Source: an uncultured bacterium | GTDB taxonomy: Bacteria > Patescibacteriota > Saccharimonadia > UBA4664 | Length of the DNA: 64,000 nucleotides | Assembly: GCA_963720265.1 (NCBI GenBank) | Contig: CAVRET010000001.1 | Location: 261,916 to 325,915, forward strand | Direction of reading: 5' to 3' | Shown here: positions 30,989 to 38,601 of the stretch, in pieces | Layout of the letters: every line of letters begins with the position of its first letter | How positions within the stretch are numbered: position 1 is the stretch's first letter | Made by a program: the position numbers and the translations under genes | The notes under the pieces: generated by a model | The model's database searches: none | Told to the model about the DNA's origin: nothing | The model's input: the letters and a program-made list of their open reading frames with translations, nothing else

Positions 30989-31895
30989 CCCTGAATCTAA
31001 AAACCTAGCCAACTAGAAAACGAGCGGGCGCATACTGTTTCTTGTAAGAGAAAACAAACATGCAACCACTCGCTCTCGAATCACATCATATCGTGGATTT
31101 ATTTGTCGTCATAGACGACGCCGTAGCAGAACCGACCCGGCCGCAGGGTGGCCGGCCAAAACTTGTTCGTGATTCAGAAATCATTACCCTTTTAATCTGG
31201 AATTGTATATCGGATACGCGTCAGCGTACCCTTAAATCCATCTTTCATTGGGCCTTGTTGTACCACCGTCGTGACGTGCCCAGGCTCGGTACATATGGGG
31301 CTTTTGTGGCCCATTGCCACCGTCTTTTGCCTCAACTTCTCGAGCTTTTGGGGCAGATGCTGGTTCCAGCCGAGATCCAGCTAGTAGATTCAACCAGGCT
31401 GCCGGTGTGCCGTAACCACCGGGCCGACAGTTACAAAGTGGCAGCCGGTCTGGCGGGCTGGGGTAAAAACTGGCAGGGCTTTTGGTTTGGATTTAAGTTG
31501 CACGCGGCGGTGGACGTGGAAGGGTGGCTTTCGGCCGTGACCTTTACTCCAGCTGACGTCTACGACGGTCATGTGACGCCCGGGCTGGTACGGCCCGAAA
31601 CTAAAATTGTAGTGGGCGACAGCCATTACGGCGACAAAATCGCCCGGGAAAAGCTTTGGCGCGAGCATGGTGTAGTGGTTGTAGCACCGGTTCATTACCG
31701 GCAAGTTTCTCAAATTATGGCTTCGTGGCAACAAAAACTTCTTGCTGCACGAGTCAAAGTCGAATGCACATTTGACTACTTAAAAGAACATCTGAACTTA
31801 GTTAGTTCATTCCCGCGGAGCAAAAACGGCTATCTGCTCCATTACGTCAGGATTTTGCTGGGCTACCAGATGGGACGGGGTTTTTAGATTCAGGG
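30989..31895 (+). mobile_element. IS982-family insertion sequence, 907 bp, perfect 17-bp terminal inverted repeats, flanked by 5-bp direct repeat TTCTG
   Basis: IRL ccctgaatctaaaaacc at 30989..31005; IRR ggtttttagattcaggg at 31879..31895. TTCTG at 30984..30988 and 31896..31900. Transposase stop codon lies inside IRR. Confidence 0.7.
31060..31887 (+). CDS. IS982-family DDE transposase
   Basis: VDSTRLPVCRNHRADSYKV...WFGFKLHAAVDVEGWLSAVTFTPADVYDG...VVGDSHYGDK matches the IS982 transposase core. Confidence 0.75.
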   Translation: MQPLALESHHIVDLFVVIDDAVAEPTRPQGGRPKLVRDSEIITLLIWNCISDTRQRTLKSIFHWALLYHRRDVPRLGTYGAFVAHCHRLLPQLLELLGQMLVPAEIQLVDSTRLPVCRNHRADSYKVAAGLAGWGKNWQGFWFGFKLHAAVDVEGWLSAVTFTPADVYDGHVTPGLVRPETKIVVGDSHYGDKIAREKLWREHGVVVVAPVHYRQVSQIMASWQQKLLAARVKVECTFDYLKEHLNLVSSFPRSKNGYLLHYVRILLGYQMGRGF

Positions 31896-32402: not shown

Positions 32403-32834
32403 TTACTGCAGTTCGACGGTAGCGCCGGCAGCTTCGAGTTTAGTCTTGGCTTCGTCGGCGTCAGCCTTGGCGATGTTTTCCTTAACGGCCTTGGGGGCGC
32501 CGTCAACGAGAGCCTTCGATTCCGCGAGGCCCAGGCCCGTGATTTCACGCACAGCCTTAATGACGTTGATCTTCTGGTCGCCGGCCGACTTCAAGATCAC
32601 GGTCGCGGTAACCTTCTCAGGCGCAGCTTCGGCTTCGTCGCCGCCTGCGGCAGGACCAGCAGCCACGGCCACGGCCGGAGCAGCGGCCGACACGCCGTAG
32701 TGGTCTTCGAGCACGTGCACGAGCTCGCTCAGTTCGAGCACGCTCAGCTTGTCGATCTGCTCAACTAACTCTTTAAATTTCTTGGGGATTTCTACTTCTT
32801 TTTTCTCAGTCTTTTCCTCAGTGGCTTCTGCCAT
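32403..32834 (-). CDS. rplL: 50S ribosomal protein L7/L12 with about 25-aa charged N-terminal extension
   Basis: Ala-rich hinge, C-terminal domain [32 protein letters not shown]. Confidence 0.9.
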
Positions 32835-32855: not shown

Positions 32856-33386
32856 TTACGAACGGGCCTCAGACAGCGCGTTCAGGACGTACATAATAGA
32901 TCGGACGTTAGCGGTCATGACACCGACGAGACCAGACAGCGGGGCGGCAAGGGTGCCGACCAATTGTCCGAGCAATTGCTCACGGGTTGGGAGCGTGGCG
33001 AGGGCTTTCACTTCGGCGGCCGAAAGCAAGTTCCCGTCAGCCGTGATGGCGCCCACGATCTCGAGCGCGTCGTGCTTCTTCGCGTACTGGAAGATCACAC
33101 GGGCCGGTGCAACTTCATCGTCAAAGCCAATGGCAAGCGCCATCGGGCCTTTAAACGAAGCCGGGTCGATGCCTTTTAAGGCCGGGGTGCCAGCGACAGC
33201 CAGGCGCAACAGGGTATTCTTGGTGACCCGGTAAGTCATCCCCTGCTCGCGCAAGTTGCCACGAAGCTCCTCGATCTCACCGACGCCCAAGCCCCGGTAG
33301 TCGGTCATGACGGCCAGTTTGAGGCGGCTTAAGTCTCCGGACAGCTGTTCAACTGCCGATTCCTTGGCCGCACGCGTAATGGCCAT
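32856..33386 (-). CDS. rplJ: 50S ribosomal protein L10
   Basis: MAITRAAKESAVEQL... typical L10 N-terminus; internal start chosen over the track ORF start. Confidence 0.85.
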   Translation of the reverse strand: MAITRAAKESAVEQLSGDLSRLKLAVMTDYRGLGVGEIEELRGNLREQGMTYRVTKNTLLRLAVAGTPALKGIDPASFKGPMALAIGFDDEVAPARVIFQYAKKHDALEIVGAITADGNLLSAAEVKALATLPTREQLLGQLVGTLAAPLSGLVGVMTANVRSIMYVLNALSEARS

Positions 33387-33600
33387 ATGTTGACTCCTTT
33401 GGTTGATATTAAAAAACTCTTGGCGCACACCAAGAGACATTGAGAATTCCGTAATGAGCGCGGTTGGGCGCTTTTTGGATACCTCGGTAGCCGAATTTTA
33501 AGCCCGGGATGGGCGGCTACTGTCTATGGTGAACGAGAGAATTGTACGTTATCTGGGGGCTTTGGTCAAGATTTCTCCGAATTAACTCCTTCAAGCGCGG
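33387..33600 (-). promoter_or_regulatory. Probable L10 (rplJL) 5' leader / autoregulatory region
   Basis: About 210-nt non-coding stretch upstream of rplJ with several stem-forming segments. Position-based inference only. Confidence 0.3.
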
Positions 33601-33607
33601 ATTTACA

Positions 33608-34084
33608 CTAGCTCTGATAAGAATCGTGGTCAAAATACGATCGAAAATCACCAAGTATTTCCGTTATAAAACTTGGTAATGCCAAGGCCGTGACCACGAA
33701 TGTCGAGCGTTTCAAGGGTACCATAGCATTGCCTTTATTTTTGCCTTGGACTTGCTCGTTAAATGTTAGCGGATAGCTGTAAAGCACCCAATCTCTGGAC
33801 TTCAGGTTTAGCTTGTTTGGGTCGATGTCGCCGGTAGCCTTATTGATATCAGCGGCATCATAGTCGGTCACCCAAAGATTGGCCGTGGTTACGACTATTG
33901 GGACAATAACATTGGGTACATCATTTGCTGGAGTCAAGCTGGGCATGTTTTCGATAAGGCCCGGTATAGCCTCATTGGTTTGCTTAATTGCGTAGTACGC
34001 TCGCGAGGCTTTGTCCGCTTGTCGACTAATTCGACCCTCAGTTTCGCTGAACTCAAATACGTTAACAGCGTGCTCGAAGTCCAT
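33608..34084 (-). CDS. Hypothetical protein, no recognisable family
   Basis: 158 aa; divergent from the cold-shock-domain gene; coding-like composition. Confidence 0.4.
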   Translation of the reverse strand: MDFEHAVNVFEFSETEGRISRQADKASRAYYAIKQTNEAIPGLIENMPSLTPANDVPNVIVPIVVTTANLWVTDYDAADINKATGDIDPNKLNLKSRDWVLYSYPLTFNEQVQGKNKGNAMVPLKRSTFVVTALALPSFITEILGDFRSYFDHDSYQS

Positions 34085-34208
34085 AGGCGCATCGTATTTC
34101 AGCCCCGGGAAACTATACTGCTGAGTGTAAAAGCTGGCCCCTCGCTTATAGAGACCTAGAATAAGCTGTCAACCACCAAACGTCTTAGCCAAGCTTGAGC
34201 GTAAAACT

Positions 34209-34237
34209 TTGACGAAGCGACCTATTTGTGCTAAAAT
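34209..34237 (+). promoter_or_regulatory. Sigma70-like promoter TTGACG-17-TAAAAT followed by about 140-nt structured 5' UTR
   Basis: -35 at 34209..34214, -10 at 34232..34237. The UTR contains the ctccca-tt-tgggag hairpin, as in csp-type leaders. Confidence 0.45.
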
Positions 34238-34383
34238 ATGCATGCTTTGTGGATTACATAAAAGCGCTCATTTAAGCTCTCTGTTATCTTTCACTCCTCC
34301 CATTTGGGAGTTCTGGACATAAATCTATTTGTGTTTGGTGCTCCCTAATGGGAACCCCACCATTCGAGTGATTGGAGTGAGCC

Positions 34384-35043
34384 ATGGTGGAATTCGGTAA
34401 GGTTAAGTTCTTCGACGACCGCGAGGGAAAGCACTACGGCTTCCTGATGGTCGTCGATGCCGACGACAACCCCACTGGCGAGGAGATCTTCTTCCACTAC
34501 AACGACGGCAAGTTCATCAGCTGCCACACCTTCTATGACCGCATAGCGCGTCGTGGGAACGAATCAATCCGCCTGAAGGTGCCCCGAAAGCTCGACAAGC
34601 TCGTCTTCGAGCGTCAGCCGGGCCGAAAGGGCGACAAAGCTTGCCCCTGGAGCTTCGCCAACGAGTGGGACGTTATCCGGTGGCGCGTCGTGCGCGAGGA
34701 CTACTACATCGAGCCGTACCAGGAAGAGCCAGGTAGCACTACGTTCTGCGACAGCGGTTCTAGCTACAAGAGCACTGTCCGTAACGGCTCGACCACGGCG
34801 GATCTCGAGGTCGTCAGCAAGTGGACCGGCGCGGACGTCGGTCTCTACGACGACGAGCAGGACGAGCCGGAAGGCGGCGGAGGTTTCTACGACGGCGCAA
34901 ACTACTGGCTACAAGTCATCCGTGATGGCAACTGGACCAGGGTCGGCATCGTCAAGCCGGCGCGCGACGCCGAAGACGACGAGGTCGATGATGTGAGCCG
35001 CGCCGAGTACGAATACGGCAAGGCCCACGAGATGTATAGCTAG
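34384..35043 (+). CDS. Cold-shock-domain protein with about 150-aa acidic C-terminal extension
   Basis: GKVKFFDDREGKHYGFL resembles the CSD RNP1 region (G.VKWFN..KGFGFI); C-terminal half is rich in D/E. Confidence 0.55.
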   Translation: MVEFGKVKFFDDREGKHYGFLMVVDADDNPTGEEIFFHYNDGKFISCHTFYDRIARRGNESIRLKVPRKLDKLVFERQPGRKGDKACPWSFANEWDVIRWRVVREDYYIEPYQEEPGSTTFCDSGSSYKSTVRNGSTTADLEVVSKWTGADVGLYDDEQDEPEGGGGFYDGANYWLQVIRDGNWTRVGIVKPARDAEDDEVDDVSRAEYEYGKAHEMYS

Positions 35044-35166
35044 AACAGAGGGCTCCGGGAGGGAGGTCGGCTGAGTGCACCGCGCACTCGGCCGCACTTC
35101 CTTCCCGGCAGTTCCTAAAACCATTATTCGGTTACGAAATAGTGTCGTTAGGTTCTGCCCAATCTC

Positions 35167-36108
35167 TTAAGCAACGTATGGCGTCCCTCGTCTCCAGACC
35201 GCGTGCACTCGGTTGAGGAGCTTTCTTGCAACCACAATGTTGGCTTCGGTATACCGCTTGCCCTCGGCCCGTTTCTTGGCGTACACCGCCTTGAGCGCAG
35301 GGTCGTGCCGTTCAGCGCTAGCGGCCGCCATATAGATTGCTCGACGCAAGTATGGTGAGCCGCGTTTAGTGAGATGCGTATTGCGGTTAAGGCTCGCTCC
35401 ACTTTGCCGGACTCGTGGGTCTAAACCGGCAAAAGCAATGAGCGATTTACCAGTCGGGAATCTGGAAATGTCACCAATCTCGGCTAGGAGCGTGCATGAG
35501 ATGACAACTCCAATGCCTGGGATGGATTCAAGCAGGCTTTTCAGCTCCGGTGCTGCATGCGTGCCGGCCTGGGCCCGAAACACCTCTGAGGCTTCACCGA
35601 GTCGCTGCTCGCAAGCAGCCAATTCAGCAATGAGATCCGCTTCAGCAGGAAGAACGGTGGTTAAGTGGTAACGCATGAGCGTCAGCGCTTGTCGTATGTT
35701 GACGAGTTTTACGCCGGTACGCACCATGGACTTCATTGCTCCAAAGGTCGCCGCTGTCACGAGCGTTCCCTCGCCTTGGGCGGCCACTCGAGCCACAACC
35801 TCAGCGTCGGTAATATCCGTCTTCTTCTTGCGCACGGTGGCCCTCGTGAATTGCTTGGTCGTAATGGGGTTGAGCAATCTAAATGGCACTCCGAGATCCA
35901 AACATATTTGAGCCAGAGGCCGGTGATATTCAGCGGTAGCTTCACTAGCCAGTACCAGATGTTTGTAGCGCCTGCGCAGGCTTTCCACGACTGGCAGAAT
36001 AGCTTCTTTGGTGTTTGCGATTTTGTATTGCTCCTTAACGGCACCGCTTCTATCTATACGAGCTCCAAACAGCATATCTTTGCCCACGTCGAATCCAACC
36101 ACCACCAT
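35167..36108 (-). CDS. IS110-family transposase (DEDD)
   Basis: VVGFDVGKD N-terminus, C-terminal GIGVVISCTLLAEIGDISRF...AFAGLDPRVRQSG...TKRGSPYLRRAIYMAA. Element ends not determinable by eye. Confidence 0.8.
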   Translation of the reverse strand: MVVVGFDVGKDMLFGARIDRSGAVKEQYKIANTKEAILPVVESLRRRYKHLVLASEATAEYHRPLAQICLDLGVPFRLLNPITTKQFTRATVRKKKTDITDAEVVARVAAQGEGTLVTAATFGAMKSMVRTGVKLVNIRQALTLMRYHLTTVLPAEADLIAELAACEQRLGEASEVFRAQAGTHAAPELKSLLESIPGIGVVISCTLLAEIGDISRFPTGKSLIAFAGLDPRVRQSGASLNRNTHLTKRGSPYLRRAIYMAAASAERHDPALKAVYAKKRAEGKRYTEANIVVARKLLNRVHAVWRRGTPYVA

Positions 36109-36262
36109 GGCAACCTCCTCGAATCTTGTTTATCTATCTGAAAAAGAAAGGAGAGAAGGAAGAGAGGAAAGAACTGGAGATACATGGAGTCCCCTGGCTG
36201 TTGGCATACAATTGGCTTGCGGGTGATCTGAGCCACAATGCTCAACCTAGAATAGATTGCCG

Positions 36263-36769
36263 CTACAACAGGAGGAGACCAGACGCTTTACTGGTGGGCT
36301 TACCGATGGACCCGGTAACCCAAAACAAAAACCGCTGGCTCTCCTTCTTTAGCTTAGACCCGTAGGTCTGCTGGGATGATACAAACAAAAACCATGGCGT
36401 TTCTCGGTGATCATTTGACCTATGTGGCTCAAACACCCAGTGCTTAAGTTTTGGATCCGCCTTCTTGCATTCAATTGGGAATACCAAGACAAGTTCAGCG
36501 CGGGAGTAGTCATACATCGGAGCGATTCCAAGGACGTCGATCGCGCCATTAACTATGACCGGGTGAACGCCATAGCTATAGGGGTATTCTCTATGCACCT
36601 TAAATGAGACTGGTTCAGTTTTTCTTAGAAACTCGTAAGTGTCACGTTCGAGAAAAACGCCAGTTCCTATCAGATCTGCCTTGATTTTCTCCATCGCGAC
36701 ATTGGCGCCACCTGACTTGGTTATTGGGGTTTTAGTAGGATCGGAATTTGGTTCCATGCGTTCTTTCAA
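36263..36769 (-). CDS. Hypothetical protein, possible PD-(D/E)XK-like nuclease fold
   Basis: AIDVLGI ... AELVLVFPIECKK resembles a D...E.K motif; 4-bp overlap with glyA stop. Confidence 0.35.
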   Translation of the reverse strand: MKERMEPNSDPTKTPITKSGGANVAMEKIKADLIGTGVFLERDTYEFLRKTEPVSFKVHREYPYSYGVHPVIVNGAIDVLGIAPMYDYSRAELVLVFPIECKKADPKLKHWVFEPHRSNDHRETPWFLFVSSQQTYGSKLKKESQRFLFWVTGSIGKPTSKASGLLLL

Positions 36770-38034
36770 GTTGGTTGCGGATAGTACCAGCTGAGTTTGG
36801 CGGTGAGGATCTTGACCTGAGCCTGGACGTTGGACTCGGAGGCTTGGTTTTGAGCGAAATGGCCGATAAGTGTGCCGAGGTCGTGGGCCTGATCGGCCGT
36901 AAGGCCGCGGCTGGTGAGGGCGGCCGTGCCGAGGCGGAGGCCGGAGGGGCGCCAGGCGGATTTTTGGTCGAAGGGGATCACATTGCGGTTTGTGATGATA
37001 CCGGCTCGCTCGAGGGCGCGTTGGAATTCGAGGCTGTCCAATTCGTCCGGCAGTTTGATTAAGCTAAGGTGATTTTGGCTGGGACTGATGATTTGCAGGC
37101 CGGTCTCGCCTATCCCCTGCTCCAGCGCGTGGTTGGTATCGATGATGGCCTGGGAGTAGGTTTTGAAGTCGCGGTGATCGGGGTAATCGTCTTCGCCTAG
37201 GATTTCGAGCAGGGCCTGGCCGGTGGCGGCGATTTGGTGCAGGTGCGGGCCGCCGGAGGTGCCGGGGAAAATGGTACGGTTTATGGCTTTCATATGCTCT
37301 TCTTTGGCGAATAGCATGGCGCCACGGGGGCCGCGGAAGGTCTTGTGCGTGGTCATGGAGACGAAATCTGCGCCCTCGTCCCCTTTTTTGAACGGCGTGT
37401 CGTGGAGACCGGCGGCTACCAGGCCATTAATGTGGGCAATATCGGCTAGCACTAAGGCTCCGGCTTCGTGGGCGGCTTTGGTGAGTTTGGCGAATTCGTA
37501 TTTGCGCGGGTAGGCGGAGAAGCCCAAGATGACAAGTTTTGGCATGGCCTCTTTGAGTTTCGCCAGATAATCGGCTTCGTCGATTTCGTAATTGTTGGGC
37601 TCGGTTTCCTTCACGTCGTAATTCACGAGTTTGAAGAATTTGAGCCAGTTGGAGGTCGTGTGCATGTGGCTGAGGTGGCCGCCGTTGGGCAGGTTAAGCG
37701 CCATAATGGTGTCGCCGGCTTCAAGCATAGCCAGAAAGACCATGGCATTGGCTGGTGAGCCGGACAGCACCTGGACGTTTACGCCGTATTCGCCGGTGGA
37801 ATCGAAGACCCCCAGGGCCTTTTCCTGCACAAAGGTCTCCATCTCGTCGGCGTGGACGTTGCCGGCGTAGTAGCGCTTGCCGGGTGTGCCTTCGGCATAT
37901 TTGTTCATCCAAACCGAGCCTAAGAGTTCGAGGACTTTGGGTGAAGGATAATTTTCAGATGCAATGAGGTTTAAGGTGTCGCGCTGCTTGGCGTATTCGG
38001 ATGCTGTGAGTTCGAATAAGTGGTTTTCGGCCAT
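36766..38034 (-). CDS. glyA: Serine hydroxymethyltransferase
   Basis: PLP site TTHKTFRGPRG, 422 aa. Confidence 0.9.
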   Translation of the reverse strand: MAENHLFELTASEYAKQRDTLNLIASENYPSPKVLELLGSVWMNKYAEGTPGKRYYAGNVHADEMETFVQEKALGVFDSTGEYGVNVQVLSGSPANAMVFLAMLEAGDTIMALNLPNGGHLSHMHTTSNWLKFFKLVNYDVKETEPNNYEIDEADYLAKLKEAMPKLVILGFSAYPRKYEFAKLTKAAHEAGALVLADIAHINGLVAAGLHDTPFKKGDEGADFVSMTTHKTFRGPRGAMLFAKEEHMKAINRTIFPGTSGGPHLHQIAATGQALLEILGEDDYPDHRDFKTYSQAIIDTNHALEQGIGETGLQIISPSQNHLSLIKLPDELDSLEFQRALERAGIITNRNVIPFDQKSAWRPSGLRLGTAALTSRGLTADQAHDLGTLIGHFAQNQASESNVQAQVKILTAKLSWYYPQPT

Positions 38035-38097: not shown

Positions 38098-38601
38098 TTA
38101 TAGCTCCCAGCGCAACGGCTGCGGTAGTTCCTGGTCGGCCATGGATTCAACAAAGACCTCCAGGAATTGGTGGAGCTGGAACTTGGCGTCTTCGTAGTCT
38201 CGAAAAGCGATTTCGGCCACCACGGCCGGATTGCCGCGCACCATGCGAGTGACGCGCCGGCTTGCCAGCTTGGTTTGCTCAGCCATGATCACGACAGGTT
38301 TGCTGGCATGATTGGCCATTTCGATTTCAATACCAACGCCGAGCGACGGCTCGCCGACGTAGGCAACGACGACGCTTGATTGCGAGACGGCCAGCCGGTC
38401 GAGCTGGTCCACGCGCTGGGGGGTGAGGTGAGGATGGAGGCCTGGATCGGAATGCTTGTGCGGCAGATAGGGCTCGATGCCAAATTCGGCGCAGACCGCG
38501 CCCAGCGATTCGTAGAATACACGCAGTTTGGCCCGGCGGTCGGGCCCGACGTCGGTTAAGGGGCCTGCGATGTAGGCTGATCTGCGGTTTGGTTTGGCCA
38601 T
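38098..38601 (-). CDS. Nucleoside 2-deoxyribosyltransferase-like protein
   Basis: SAYIAGPL N-terminal flavodoxin-like start, conserved acidic core; fold-family call only. Confidence 0.45.
   Translation of the reverse strand: MAKPNRRSAYIAGPLTDVGPDRRAKLRVFYESLGAVCAEFGIEPYLPHKHSDPGLHPHLTPQRVDQLDRLAVSQSSVVVAYVGEPSLGVGIEIEMANHASKPVVIMAEQTKLASRRVTRMVRGNPAVVAEIAFRDYEDAKFQLHQFLEVFVESMADQELPQPLRWEL

Follow-up and report, generated by a model that had tools for sequence, protein, structure and literature searches.

Elements of the IS110 group encode their bridge RNA in a long left end (Durrant et al. 2024, PMC11208160), and in IS621 the left target guide of this RNA pairs with the target's bottom strand whereas the right target guide pairs with the top strand (PMC11208160). 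IS110 elements acquire DNA downstream of the transposase gene and tolerate half-matches in recombination (Hu et al., bioRxiv 10.64898/2026.08.14.744561), a one-sided target match is, according to recent preprints, a common configuration of off-target events (including bioRxiv 10.64898/2026.08.14.744561), and ISPpu9 carries an optional small RNA (sRNA) module downstream of its transposase (PMC12288879). Here we describe an element related to these systems in a 64,000-nucleotide (nt) stretch of DNA from an uncultured bacterium of the Saccharimonadia (contig CAVRET010000001.1, positions 261,916 to 325,915), which we call the window and whose numbering is used throughout. The block under study, 33608-36769, lies between glyA and rplJ and very probably represents a cargo-carrying, bridge-RNA-guided IS110 element whose insertion inactivated a horizontally acquired gene that lay in the variable spacer between those two genes. 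Cargo-bearing IS110 elements have already been described in a 2026 preprint, and the window holds a small, clean example from the candidate phyla radiation (CPR).

The window element shares with IS621 and the IS110 group a recombinase made of a DEDD domain and a Transposase_20 domain, together with a long left end that specifies a structured two-loop RNA. As in IS621, the 5′ strands of the loops are in the sense of the left target and the left donor, the 3′ strand of the target loop complements CT plus the right target, and the element has a short right end and lacks terminal inverted repeats. Unlike IS621, the element is 2.2 kb rather than about 1.3 kb long, owing to a passenger gene, its junctions do not share a duplicated CT but carry GT on the left and CT on the right, it has neither a recognised right donor guide nor an Rfam model, and its host belongs to the CPR (Saccharimonadia). 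The expanded IS110 loci of Hu et al. likewise hold extra DNA within the donor ends, downstream of the transposase, contain no second transposase and match the target well in one half only, but their cargo is plasmid-derived or of the resistance type whereas here it is a single housekeeping-type gene, no left donor (LD) or right donor (RD) half-match occurs at the internal boundaries, and a close relative has a HAD hydrolase in the same slot. ISPpu9, likewise of the IS110 family, has an optional additional module, ssr9, on the downstream side of its transposase; ssr9, however, is a small RNA gene with repeated boxes of its own that can circularise alone (PMC12288879), whereas the window module encodes a protein and shows no detectable repeats at its ends.

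The 168- and 158-amino-acid (aa) open reading frames (ORFs) at the two edges of the block are the N- and C-terminal fragments of one gene of about 285 aa. When the 168-aa ORF was used as query, about 20 homologous proteins came up, each 283-284 aa long and matching only the first 61-69% of the ORF; the ORF aligns with the N-terminal ~107 residues of these homologues, and the 158-aa ORF, once extended upstream, aligns with their C-terminal ~175 residues. Homology stops at ...PWFLFV (about 36381) and picks up again at YKRGASFYTQQ (34151). When 34152-36380 (2,229 bp) was removed in silico, a single 310-codon ORF resulted, and its product aligned end to end with homologue P0002 at 54% identity over 280 residues (E = 1e-110). 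All duplication models tried were set against the reading frame, and only a join without a duplicated base restored the ORF. Because deletion of these 2,229 bp restores the frame, the two ORFs are not separate genes. The last ~40 codons of the 168-aa ORF (down to 36263) are read-through into the left end of the insertion sequence (IS), and possible starts for the N-terminal fragment are TTG at 36769, ATG at 36757 and ATG at 36694. An earlier, sequence-only reading of the block had listed four ORFs, all of which are indeed present. It had taken the 158-aa product for a protein of no recognisable family encoded by its own gene, which the alignment to the longer homologues overturns, and the 168-aa product for a PD-(D/E)XK-like protein; here the D..ExK motif did prove conserved, whereas the ORF itself turned out to be a gene fragment followed by read-through.

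Specifically, D58, E77 and K79 do not vary among 20 homologues of the split gene and E21 hardly does (at least 90% conserved), and the alignment places all four residues in the N-terminal fragment of the window. This conserved motif suggests that the family may comprise PD-(D/E)XK nucleases. The 158-, 168- and 219-aa window ORFs matched nothing in Pfam, NCBIfam, PHROG or PADLOC, nor did the ~285-aa family, for which a profile search of the PDB returned noise only; an AlphaFold2 (AF2) model of the family had a mean predicted local distance difference test (pLDDT) score of 30.7, built from a shallow alignment of 20 sequences whose members are 74-89% identical to the first. Searching plasmids and phages for the split gene with tblastn gave no match. 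Intact homologues sit in changing neighbourhoods rich in defence genes, among them type III restriction-modification with DUF2726, HEPN_Toprim_N, type I restriction-modification and a Bub-like ubiquitin system, so that a mobile, defence-associated nature is plausible for the split gene. Intact members of the family, of about 284 aa, include those at L001 5068-6179, L009 3799-4918 and L013 79-1205, and they are usually preceded by a 75-aa ORF, with which they may form an uncharacterised two-gene cassette. When the neighbours tested were run through PADLOC, the sole match was a weak one, of the 75-aa ORF to PDC-M28A (E = 0.0035).

The segment that interrupts the gene is a complete IS110-family element, arranged on the minus strand in the order left end with bridge RNA, transposase, cargo and right end. 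Its transposase, already assigned to IS110 in the sequence-only reading, is full length and matches PF01548 (DEDD_Tnp_IS110, E = 2.5e-18), PF02371 (Transposase_20, 5.7e-28) and NF033542, ‘IS110 family RNA-guided transposase’ (1.9e-53, 181.8 bits vs a cut-off of 140, covering 3-310). Among its 1,756 homologues, the closest named ones come from Candidatus Saccharimonadales. The element boundaries are common to the related elements L015-L018 and L035-L044. In the closest relative, L014, the transposase is 89% identical, the DNA matches window 36391-35161 at 84%, and positions 1964-1990 match window 34175-34149 at 26 of 27 bases, a stretch that adjoins the C-terminal gene fragment in the window. 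In L015 (80% identity) the right-end motif TGGTTGACAG[C/G]TTATTCTAGGTCT and the transposase gene's end directly overlap; in L016-L018 and L035-L044 the motif lies no more than ~100 nt from the transposase stop. The elements differ in length, at 2,229 bp in the window, ~1,955 bp in L014 and 1,245-1,304 bp in the others. Since the right-end motif of the window lies distal to the 219-aa gene, that gene is inside the element. The cargo itself has neither terminal inverted repeats nor a further transposase.

In every related element the right end contains a TTGACA or TTGACT hexamer 14 nt from the tip. Joining the right end to the left end would leave a spacer of 14 nt between this hexamer and TATCAT, which is shorter than a standard sigma-70 junction promoter needs.

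The left end is conserved over nine related elements as two stem/internal-loop modules and a terminal hairpin, and its RNAalifold consensus contains 17 compensatory pairs of 50 with six sequences and 11 of 40 with nine; it matches no Rfam family. The terminal hairpin and a pyrimidine tract close the left end just upstream of the transposase start (36108). Over about 12 related elements, segments of this RNA co-vary with the flanking target and with the right end. The left target guide equals the left flank in the same sense, at 11 of 11 positions in the window, 10 of 11 in L017, 9 of 9 in L038 and 8 of 8 in L042, and as GTGCTTG in L016. The reverse complement of the right target guide equals CT plus the right flank, with all five flank bases matched in L017, L018 and L035-L044 even as the flank changes: ATGAT in L035, ACAAT in L037 and L038 (two sites), AGAAT in L039-L044 (two sites), CGAAC in L017 and AGAAC in L018. 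The second loop carries a guide on its 5′ strand that is identical to the right end of the element itself, and the two co-vary as ATTCTAGGT, ATTGTAGGT and ATTCCAGG. The junctions are constant in every element examined (window, L014-L018 and L035-L044), with ...TGTTTGT before and AT after the left boundary and ...AGGTCT up to the right boundary. In the window only 2 of the 5 right target bases are as predicted (predicted TTACT, observed CTATA). Set against 11 of 11 on the left, this makes the insertion one-sided in appearance, and it looks like a left-half-match, off-target event.

Elements L039-L044 are copies of one IS (identical transposase, P0037) that show recombined combinations of left and right flanks across contigs, one of the right flanks being tRNA-gene-like. 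These shuffled flanks reflect either IS-mediated rearrangement or chimeric assembly.

The cargo gene of the window lies on the strand opposite to the transposase, and the equivalent slot of L014, from the transposase stop to the right end, is filled by a 213-aa HAD hydrolase. The 219-aa product is a divergent cold-shock domain (CSD) protein, as the sequence-only reading had recognised, whose modelled fold is a five-stranded oligonucleotide/oligosaccharide-binding (OB) barrel superposable on CspA and CspB. An exhaustive HMMER search recovered 170 relatives, whose conservation is confined to residues 1-100. A profile of 48 of them matches the CSDs of CspB, CspA and Y-box proteins in the PDB (best E = 5e-5), with an alignment to CspB that spans GxVKxF..GFGF and FxH, and 21 of the 48 match the Pfam CSD model PF00313 (best 5.3e-8); the window protein itself gave no match to that model at E <= 0.1. 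The AF2 model has a pLDDT above 92 for residues 1-90 and of 84 for residues 91-100, and its top Foldseek matches are CspB, CspE and CspA at a probability of 1.0 and target template-modelling (TM) scores of 0.70-0.78, followed by matches to Lin28 and YB-1. In common with the CspA family, the protein has an OB-fold CSD with ribonucleoprotein (RNP)-like motifs (KxxGFL, FFH) and is preceded by a long structured 5′ leader; unlike that family, it has a ~20-residue hairpin insert, modelled as an extra beta-hairpin at about residues 44-63, and a 120-residue acidic tail, and it misses the Pfam CSD threshold. The tail is poorly modelled and acidic, with 27 aspartates and glutamates in 119 residues, and it extends over residues 101-219; the sequence-only account of the gene largely holds.

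Both the promoter and the long structured 5′ untranslated region (UTR) that had been proposed for this gene find support. The promoter-like TTGACG-17-TAAAAT site is present, and the leader folds with a minimum free energy (MFE) of -53.9 kcal/mol (z = -4.04), a stability reached by none of 200 shuffled sequences. In the predicted fold its long hairpin pairs with the Shine-Dalgarno (SD) region. Homologues in L003 and L045 keep the promoter, the leader motifs and the hairpin in their upstream regions, and 11 of the 36 pairs of the leader hairpin are compensatory across the three sequences. The leader matches no Rfam family, cspA included, and unlike the cspA 5′ UTR thermosensor it is predicted to mask the SD. 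The conserved leader stands before this CSD-like family at window 34244-34383, L003 1592-1736 and L045 1-159, with the TTCGAGTGA motif kept in each.

In L003, from another metagenome, the CSD homologue lies among ordinary chromosomal genes with no IS present. The GC content at third codon positions (GC3) is 0.81 in the cargo gene and 0.56 in the transposase. We considered whether its high GC3 marks the CSD gene as foreign, and rejected this: the L003 copy has a GC3 of 0.76 in a contig of 0.46 GC, so the bias belongs to the gene family. Most likely, the cassette is hitch-hiking cargo that would supply an RNA- or single-stranded-DNA-binding, chaperone-type protein under leader-mediated translational control, and a functional partnership with the broken gene is improbable.

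The block between glyA and rplJ is accessory. We compared 12 related glyA loci, mostly labelled Saccharimonadia, Saccharibacteria or Patescibacteria, one of them a distant Lentisphaerae locus (39% identity), and found the ~285-aa gene, the IS and the CSD gene in none of the 12, which bears out the view that the block is an addition. The order glyA, rplJ, rplL is kept in 6 of the 12 loci, 5 of which also keep orf174. It follows that rplJL beside glyA, and not the contiguous rplKAJL against which the block had originally been judged, is the normal state of this lineage, and synteny among relatives makes the ribosomal protein L10 leader a native neighbour of glyA. The glyA-rplJ spacer is only 281 bp long in the closest relative, L034, and 640, 866, 1,219, 1,636 and 3,297 bp in the others. 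The longer spacers have unrelated contents, including Crp-like regulators, a 229-aa candidate HD-domain-like protein (identified by eye) and candidate serA/serC-like genes. The disrupted gene has a GC3 of 0.47-0.50, vs 0.61-0.72 in the conserved host genes that flank the islet.

The interval from glyA to the L10 leader is an insertion hot spot in metagenome-assembled genomes (MAGs) of Saccharimonadia (L023, L027, L028, L029, L033 and L034).

Table 1. Features of the glyA-rplJ block and its borders, in window positions, with predicted sites and clade motifs at the foot.
Feature	Position	Strand	Basis or remark
rplL	32403-32834	-	downstream of islet
rplJ	32856-33440	-	downstream of islet
Ribosomal protein L10 leader	33401-33547	-	Rfam RF00557, 55.1 bits vs gathering score 44
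Promoter-like site of L10 leader	33541-33569	-	motif
C-terminal part of disrupted gene	33608-34151	-	homology
ORF, 158 aa	33608-34084	-	ORF list; ATG-initiated remnant of the C-terminal part
Right junction	34150-34153
Complete IS110-family element, 2,229 bp (ATCATCC...TTATTCTAGGTCT)	34152-36380	-	boundaries +/-1 nt
Right end (left donor half-site), 24 bp, TGGTTGACAGCTTATTCTAGGTCT	34152-34175	-	holds conserved TTGACA
Passenger segment, about 985 bp	34176-35160	+	promoter, 5′ leader, 219-aa gene, inverted-repeat-rich spacer
Sigma-70-like promoter, TTGACG-17-TAAAAT + TG extension	34209-34237	+	kept upstream of L003 homologue
Structured 5′ leader, ~140 nt	34244-34383	+	folding vs shuffles
ORF, 219 aa	34384-35043	+	ORF list; residues 1-100 CSD, 101-219 acidic tail
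ORF, 313 aa: IS110-family DEDD recombinase/transposase, full length	35167-36108	-	ORF list; Pfam, NCBIfam
Left end, 272 bp	36109-36380	-	bridge-RNA-like non-coding RNA
Left donor guide CTATTCTAGGT	36245-36255	-	donor-binding loop, 5′ strand
ORF, 168 aa	36263-36769	-	ORF list
Right target guide	36286-36294	-	target-binding loop, 3′ strand
Left target guide GGTTTTTGTTT	36323-36333	-	target-binding loop, 5′ strand
Left junction	36380-36384
N-terminal part of disrupted gene	36381-36769	-	alignment with homologues; holds conserved E..D..ExK motif
glyA	36766-38034	-	upstream neighbour of islet
Predicted full target			GGTTTTTGTTT-GT/CT-TTACT
Observed insertion site			GGTTTTTGTTTGT, then CT...
Predicted empty site			GGTTTTTGTTTGT joined to CTATAAGCG
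Predicted circular junction			...TTCTAGGTCT joined to ATCATCCC... (right end to left end)
Right-end motif			TTGACNNNNNATTNNAGGTCT; IS110 clade
Left-end anchor			GGAGAGCCAGC; IS110 clade

On the reading that we prefer, a foreign, low-GC gene of ~285 aa would have arrived directly after glyA, in the variable glyA-rplJ spacer, and the 2,229-bp IS110-family element would later have entered it at codon ~131, splitting it into two pseudo-ORFs. Insertion would have been guided by the bridge RNA of the left end, whose target loop is predicted to read the flanks while the donor loop reads the right end. The order of the two events is presumably the one given here, and the sequence suggests that the element may be active. 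Several observations weigh against this account. The restored protein has one extra residue at the join relative to its homologues, and the empty site is itself a deduction from in-silico gene restoration. Beside the crossover stands GT on the left and CT on the right, where the IS621 model calls for one core dinucleotide shared by the two ends, and a k-mer search turned up no convincing right donor guide for the left-end terminus. At the cargo boundaries there is no LD- or RD-like site with <=2 mismatches, and this absence of donor half-sites leaves the entry of the cargo unexplained. Finally, no further copy of the element occurs within the window and the protein collection holds it on a single contig; with only one visible copy, mobility of the whole 2.2-kb unit is conjectural. 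An exact-protein look-up likewise found no other copy, a transposase scan of representative genome contigs and a blastn search of the element against plasmids gave no match, and a metagenome scan with the transposase recovered 7 distant loci only.

That single known copy of the 2.2-kb form bears on the possibility that the element grew in place, a minimal IS110 of ~1.25 kb having inserted first and the CSD cassette having been added later at the locus, so that the cargo never moved. We hold this to be a real possibility, if one that we would not back: stepwise acquisition downstream of the transposase is common in the data of Hu et al. (n = 703), where mobility as a unit declines with size, and the GC3 of the cargo (0.81) is unlike that of the transposase (0.56), but 2.2 kb is well inside the span of sizes for which the same study still finds movement as a unit, and L014, with another cargo in the same slot and a different place of insertion, puts the cargo-bearing form at more than one site. 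The suggestion of the sequence-only reading, that four independent genes make up, or lie beside, a small defence or addiction module, fares far worse and is very improbable. It could draw on the invariant D..ExK motif and on the type I and III restriction-modification, HEPN_Toprim_N, DUF2726 and Bub-like genes beside intact homologues of the split gene; however, its two ‘hypothetical proteins’ are halves of one gene, the CSD gene is inside an IS, PADLOC models match neither the window proteins nor the intact homologues, relatives of the CSD gene live in ordinary chromosomal contexts, and the loci of intact homologues contain neither a CSD gene nor this IS. The adjacency on which the module rested was made by the IS insertion, with the supposed nuclease gene as its broken target and the CSD gene as a passenger, and the proposed link of the CSD gene to the other ORFs gives way before the unrelated HAD hydrolase in the same slot of the closest related element; we therefore reject the module. 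Slighter still is the chance of an artefact in which a repeated IS was mis-joined in a chimeric MAG contig. The related copies L039-L044, whose flanks are shuffled between metagenome contigs, show how this could arise, but both flanks of the window element belong to the same gene and join in frame, to the nucleotide, once an element delimited independently on other loci is taken out, and the left flank agrees with the element's own guide at 11 of 11 positions.

The cargo-carrying element inserted into a foreign gene corrects an annotation trap, in that two deposited ‘hypothetical proteins’ are one pseudogene and the neighbours of an IS should not be taken for an operon. It also provides a natural bridge-RNA element of CPR bacteria in which guide/target co-variation can be read, and its apparent half-match insertion and passenger gene bear on current questions of how bridge recombinases behave off target and how much cargo they can take. 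Two side leads emerge, namely a divergent CSD family with a conserved leader predicted to mask the SD and a ~285-aa family that travels with defence genes. We speculate, while thinking it unlikely as a whole, that the Saccharimonadia IS110 clade possesses a defined single-gene slot, from the recombinase stop to the 24-bp right end, which takes up different cassettes, so that such elements would act as gene-cassette shuttles in the ultra-small genomes of the CPR; the CSD cargo would then bring with it an undescribed leader RNA, and, separately, the broken gene would represent a new defence-island nuclease family silenced by the IS.

Outside the block, a 167-aa ORF resembling nucleoside 2-deoxyribosyltransferases lies at 38098-38601, between glyA and a DHFR-like gene; it matches Pfam PF05014 at E = 2.3e-5, under the family cut-off, and is detectable in one related locus only (L025). 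On the other side, a second, unrelated insertion sequence of 907 bp occupies 30989-31895, between rplL and the conserved 174-aa gene, which in L023, L028 and L029 are about 130-180 bp apart. Its terminal inverted repeats are perfect and 17 bp long (CCCTGAATCTAAAAACC), and it encodes a 275-aa DDE_Tnp_1_3 transposase at 31060-31887 on the plus strand.

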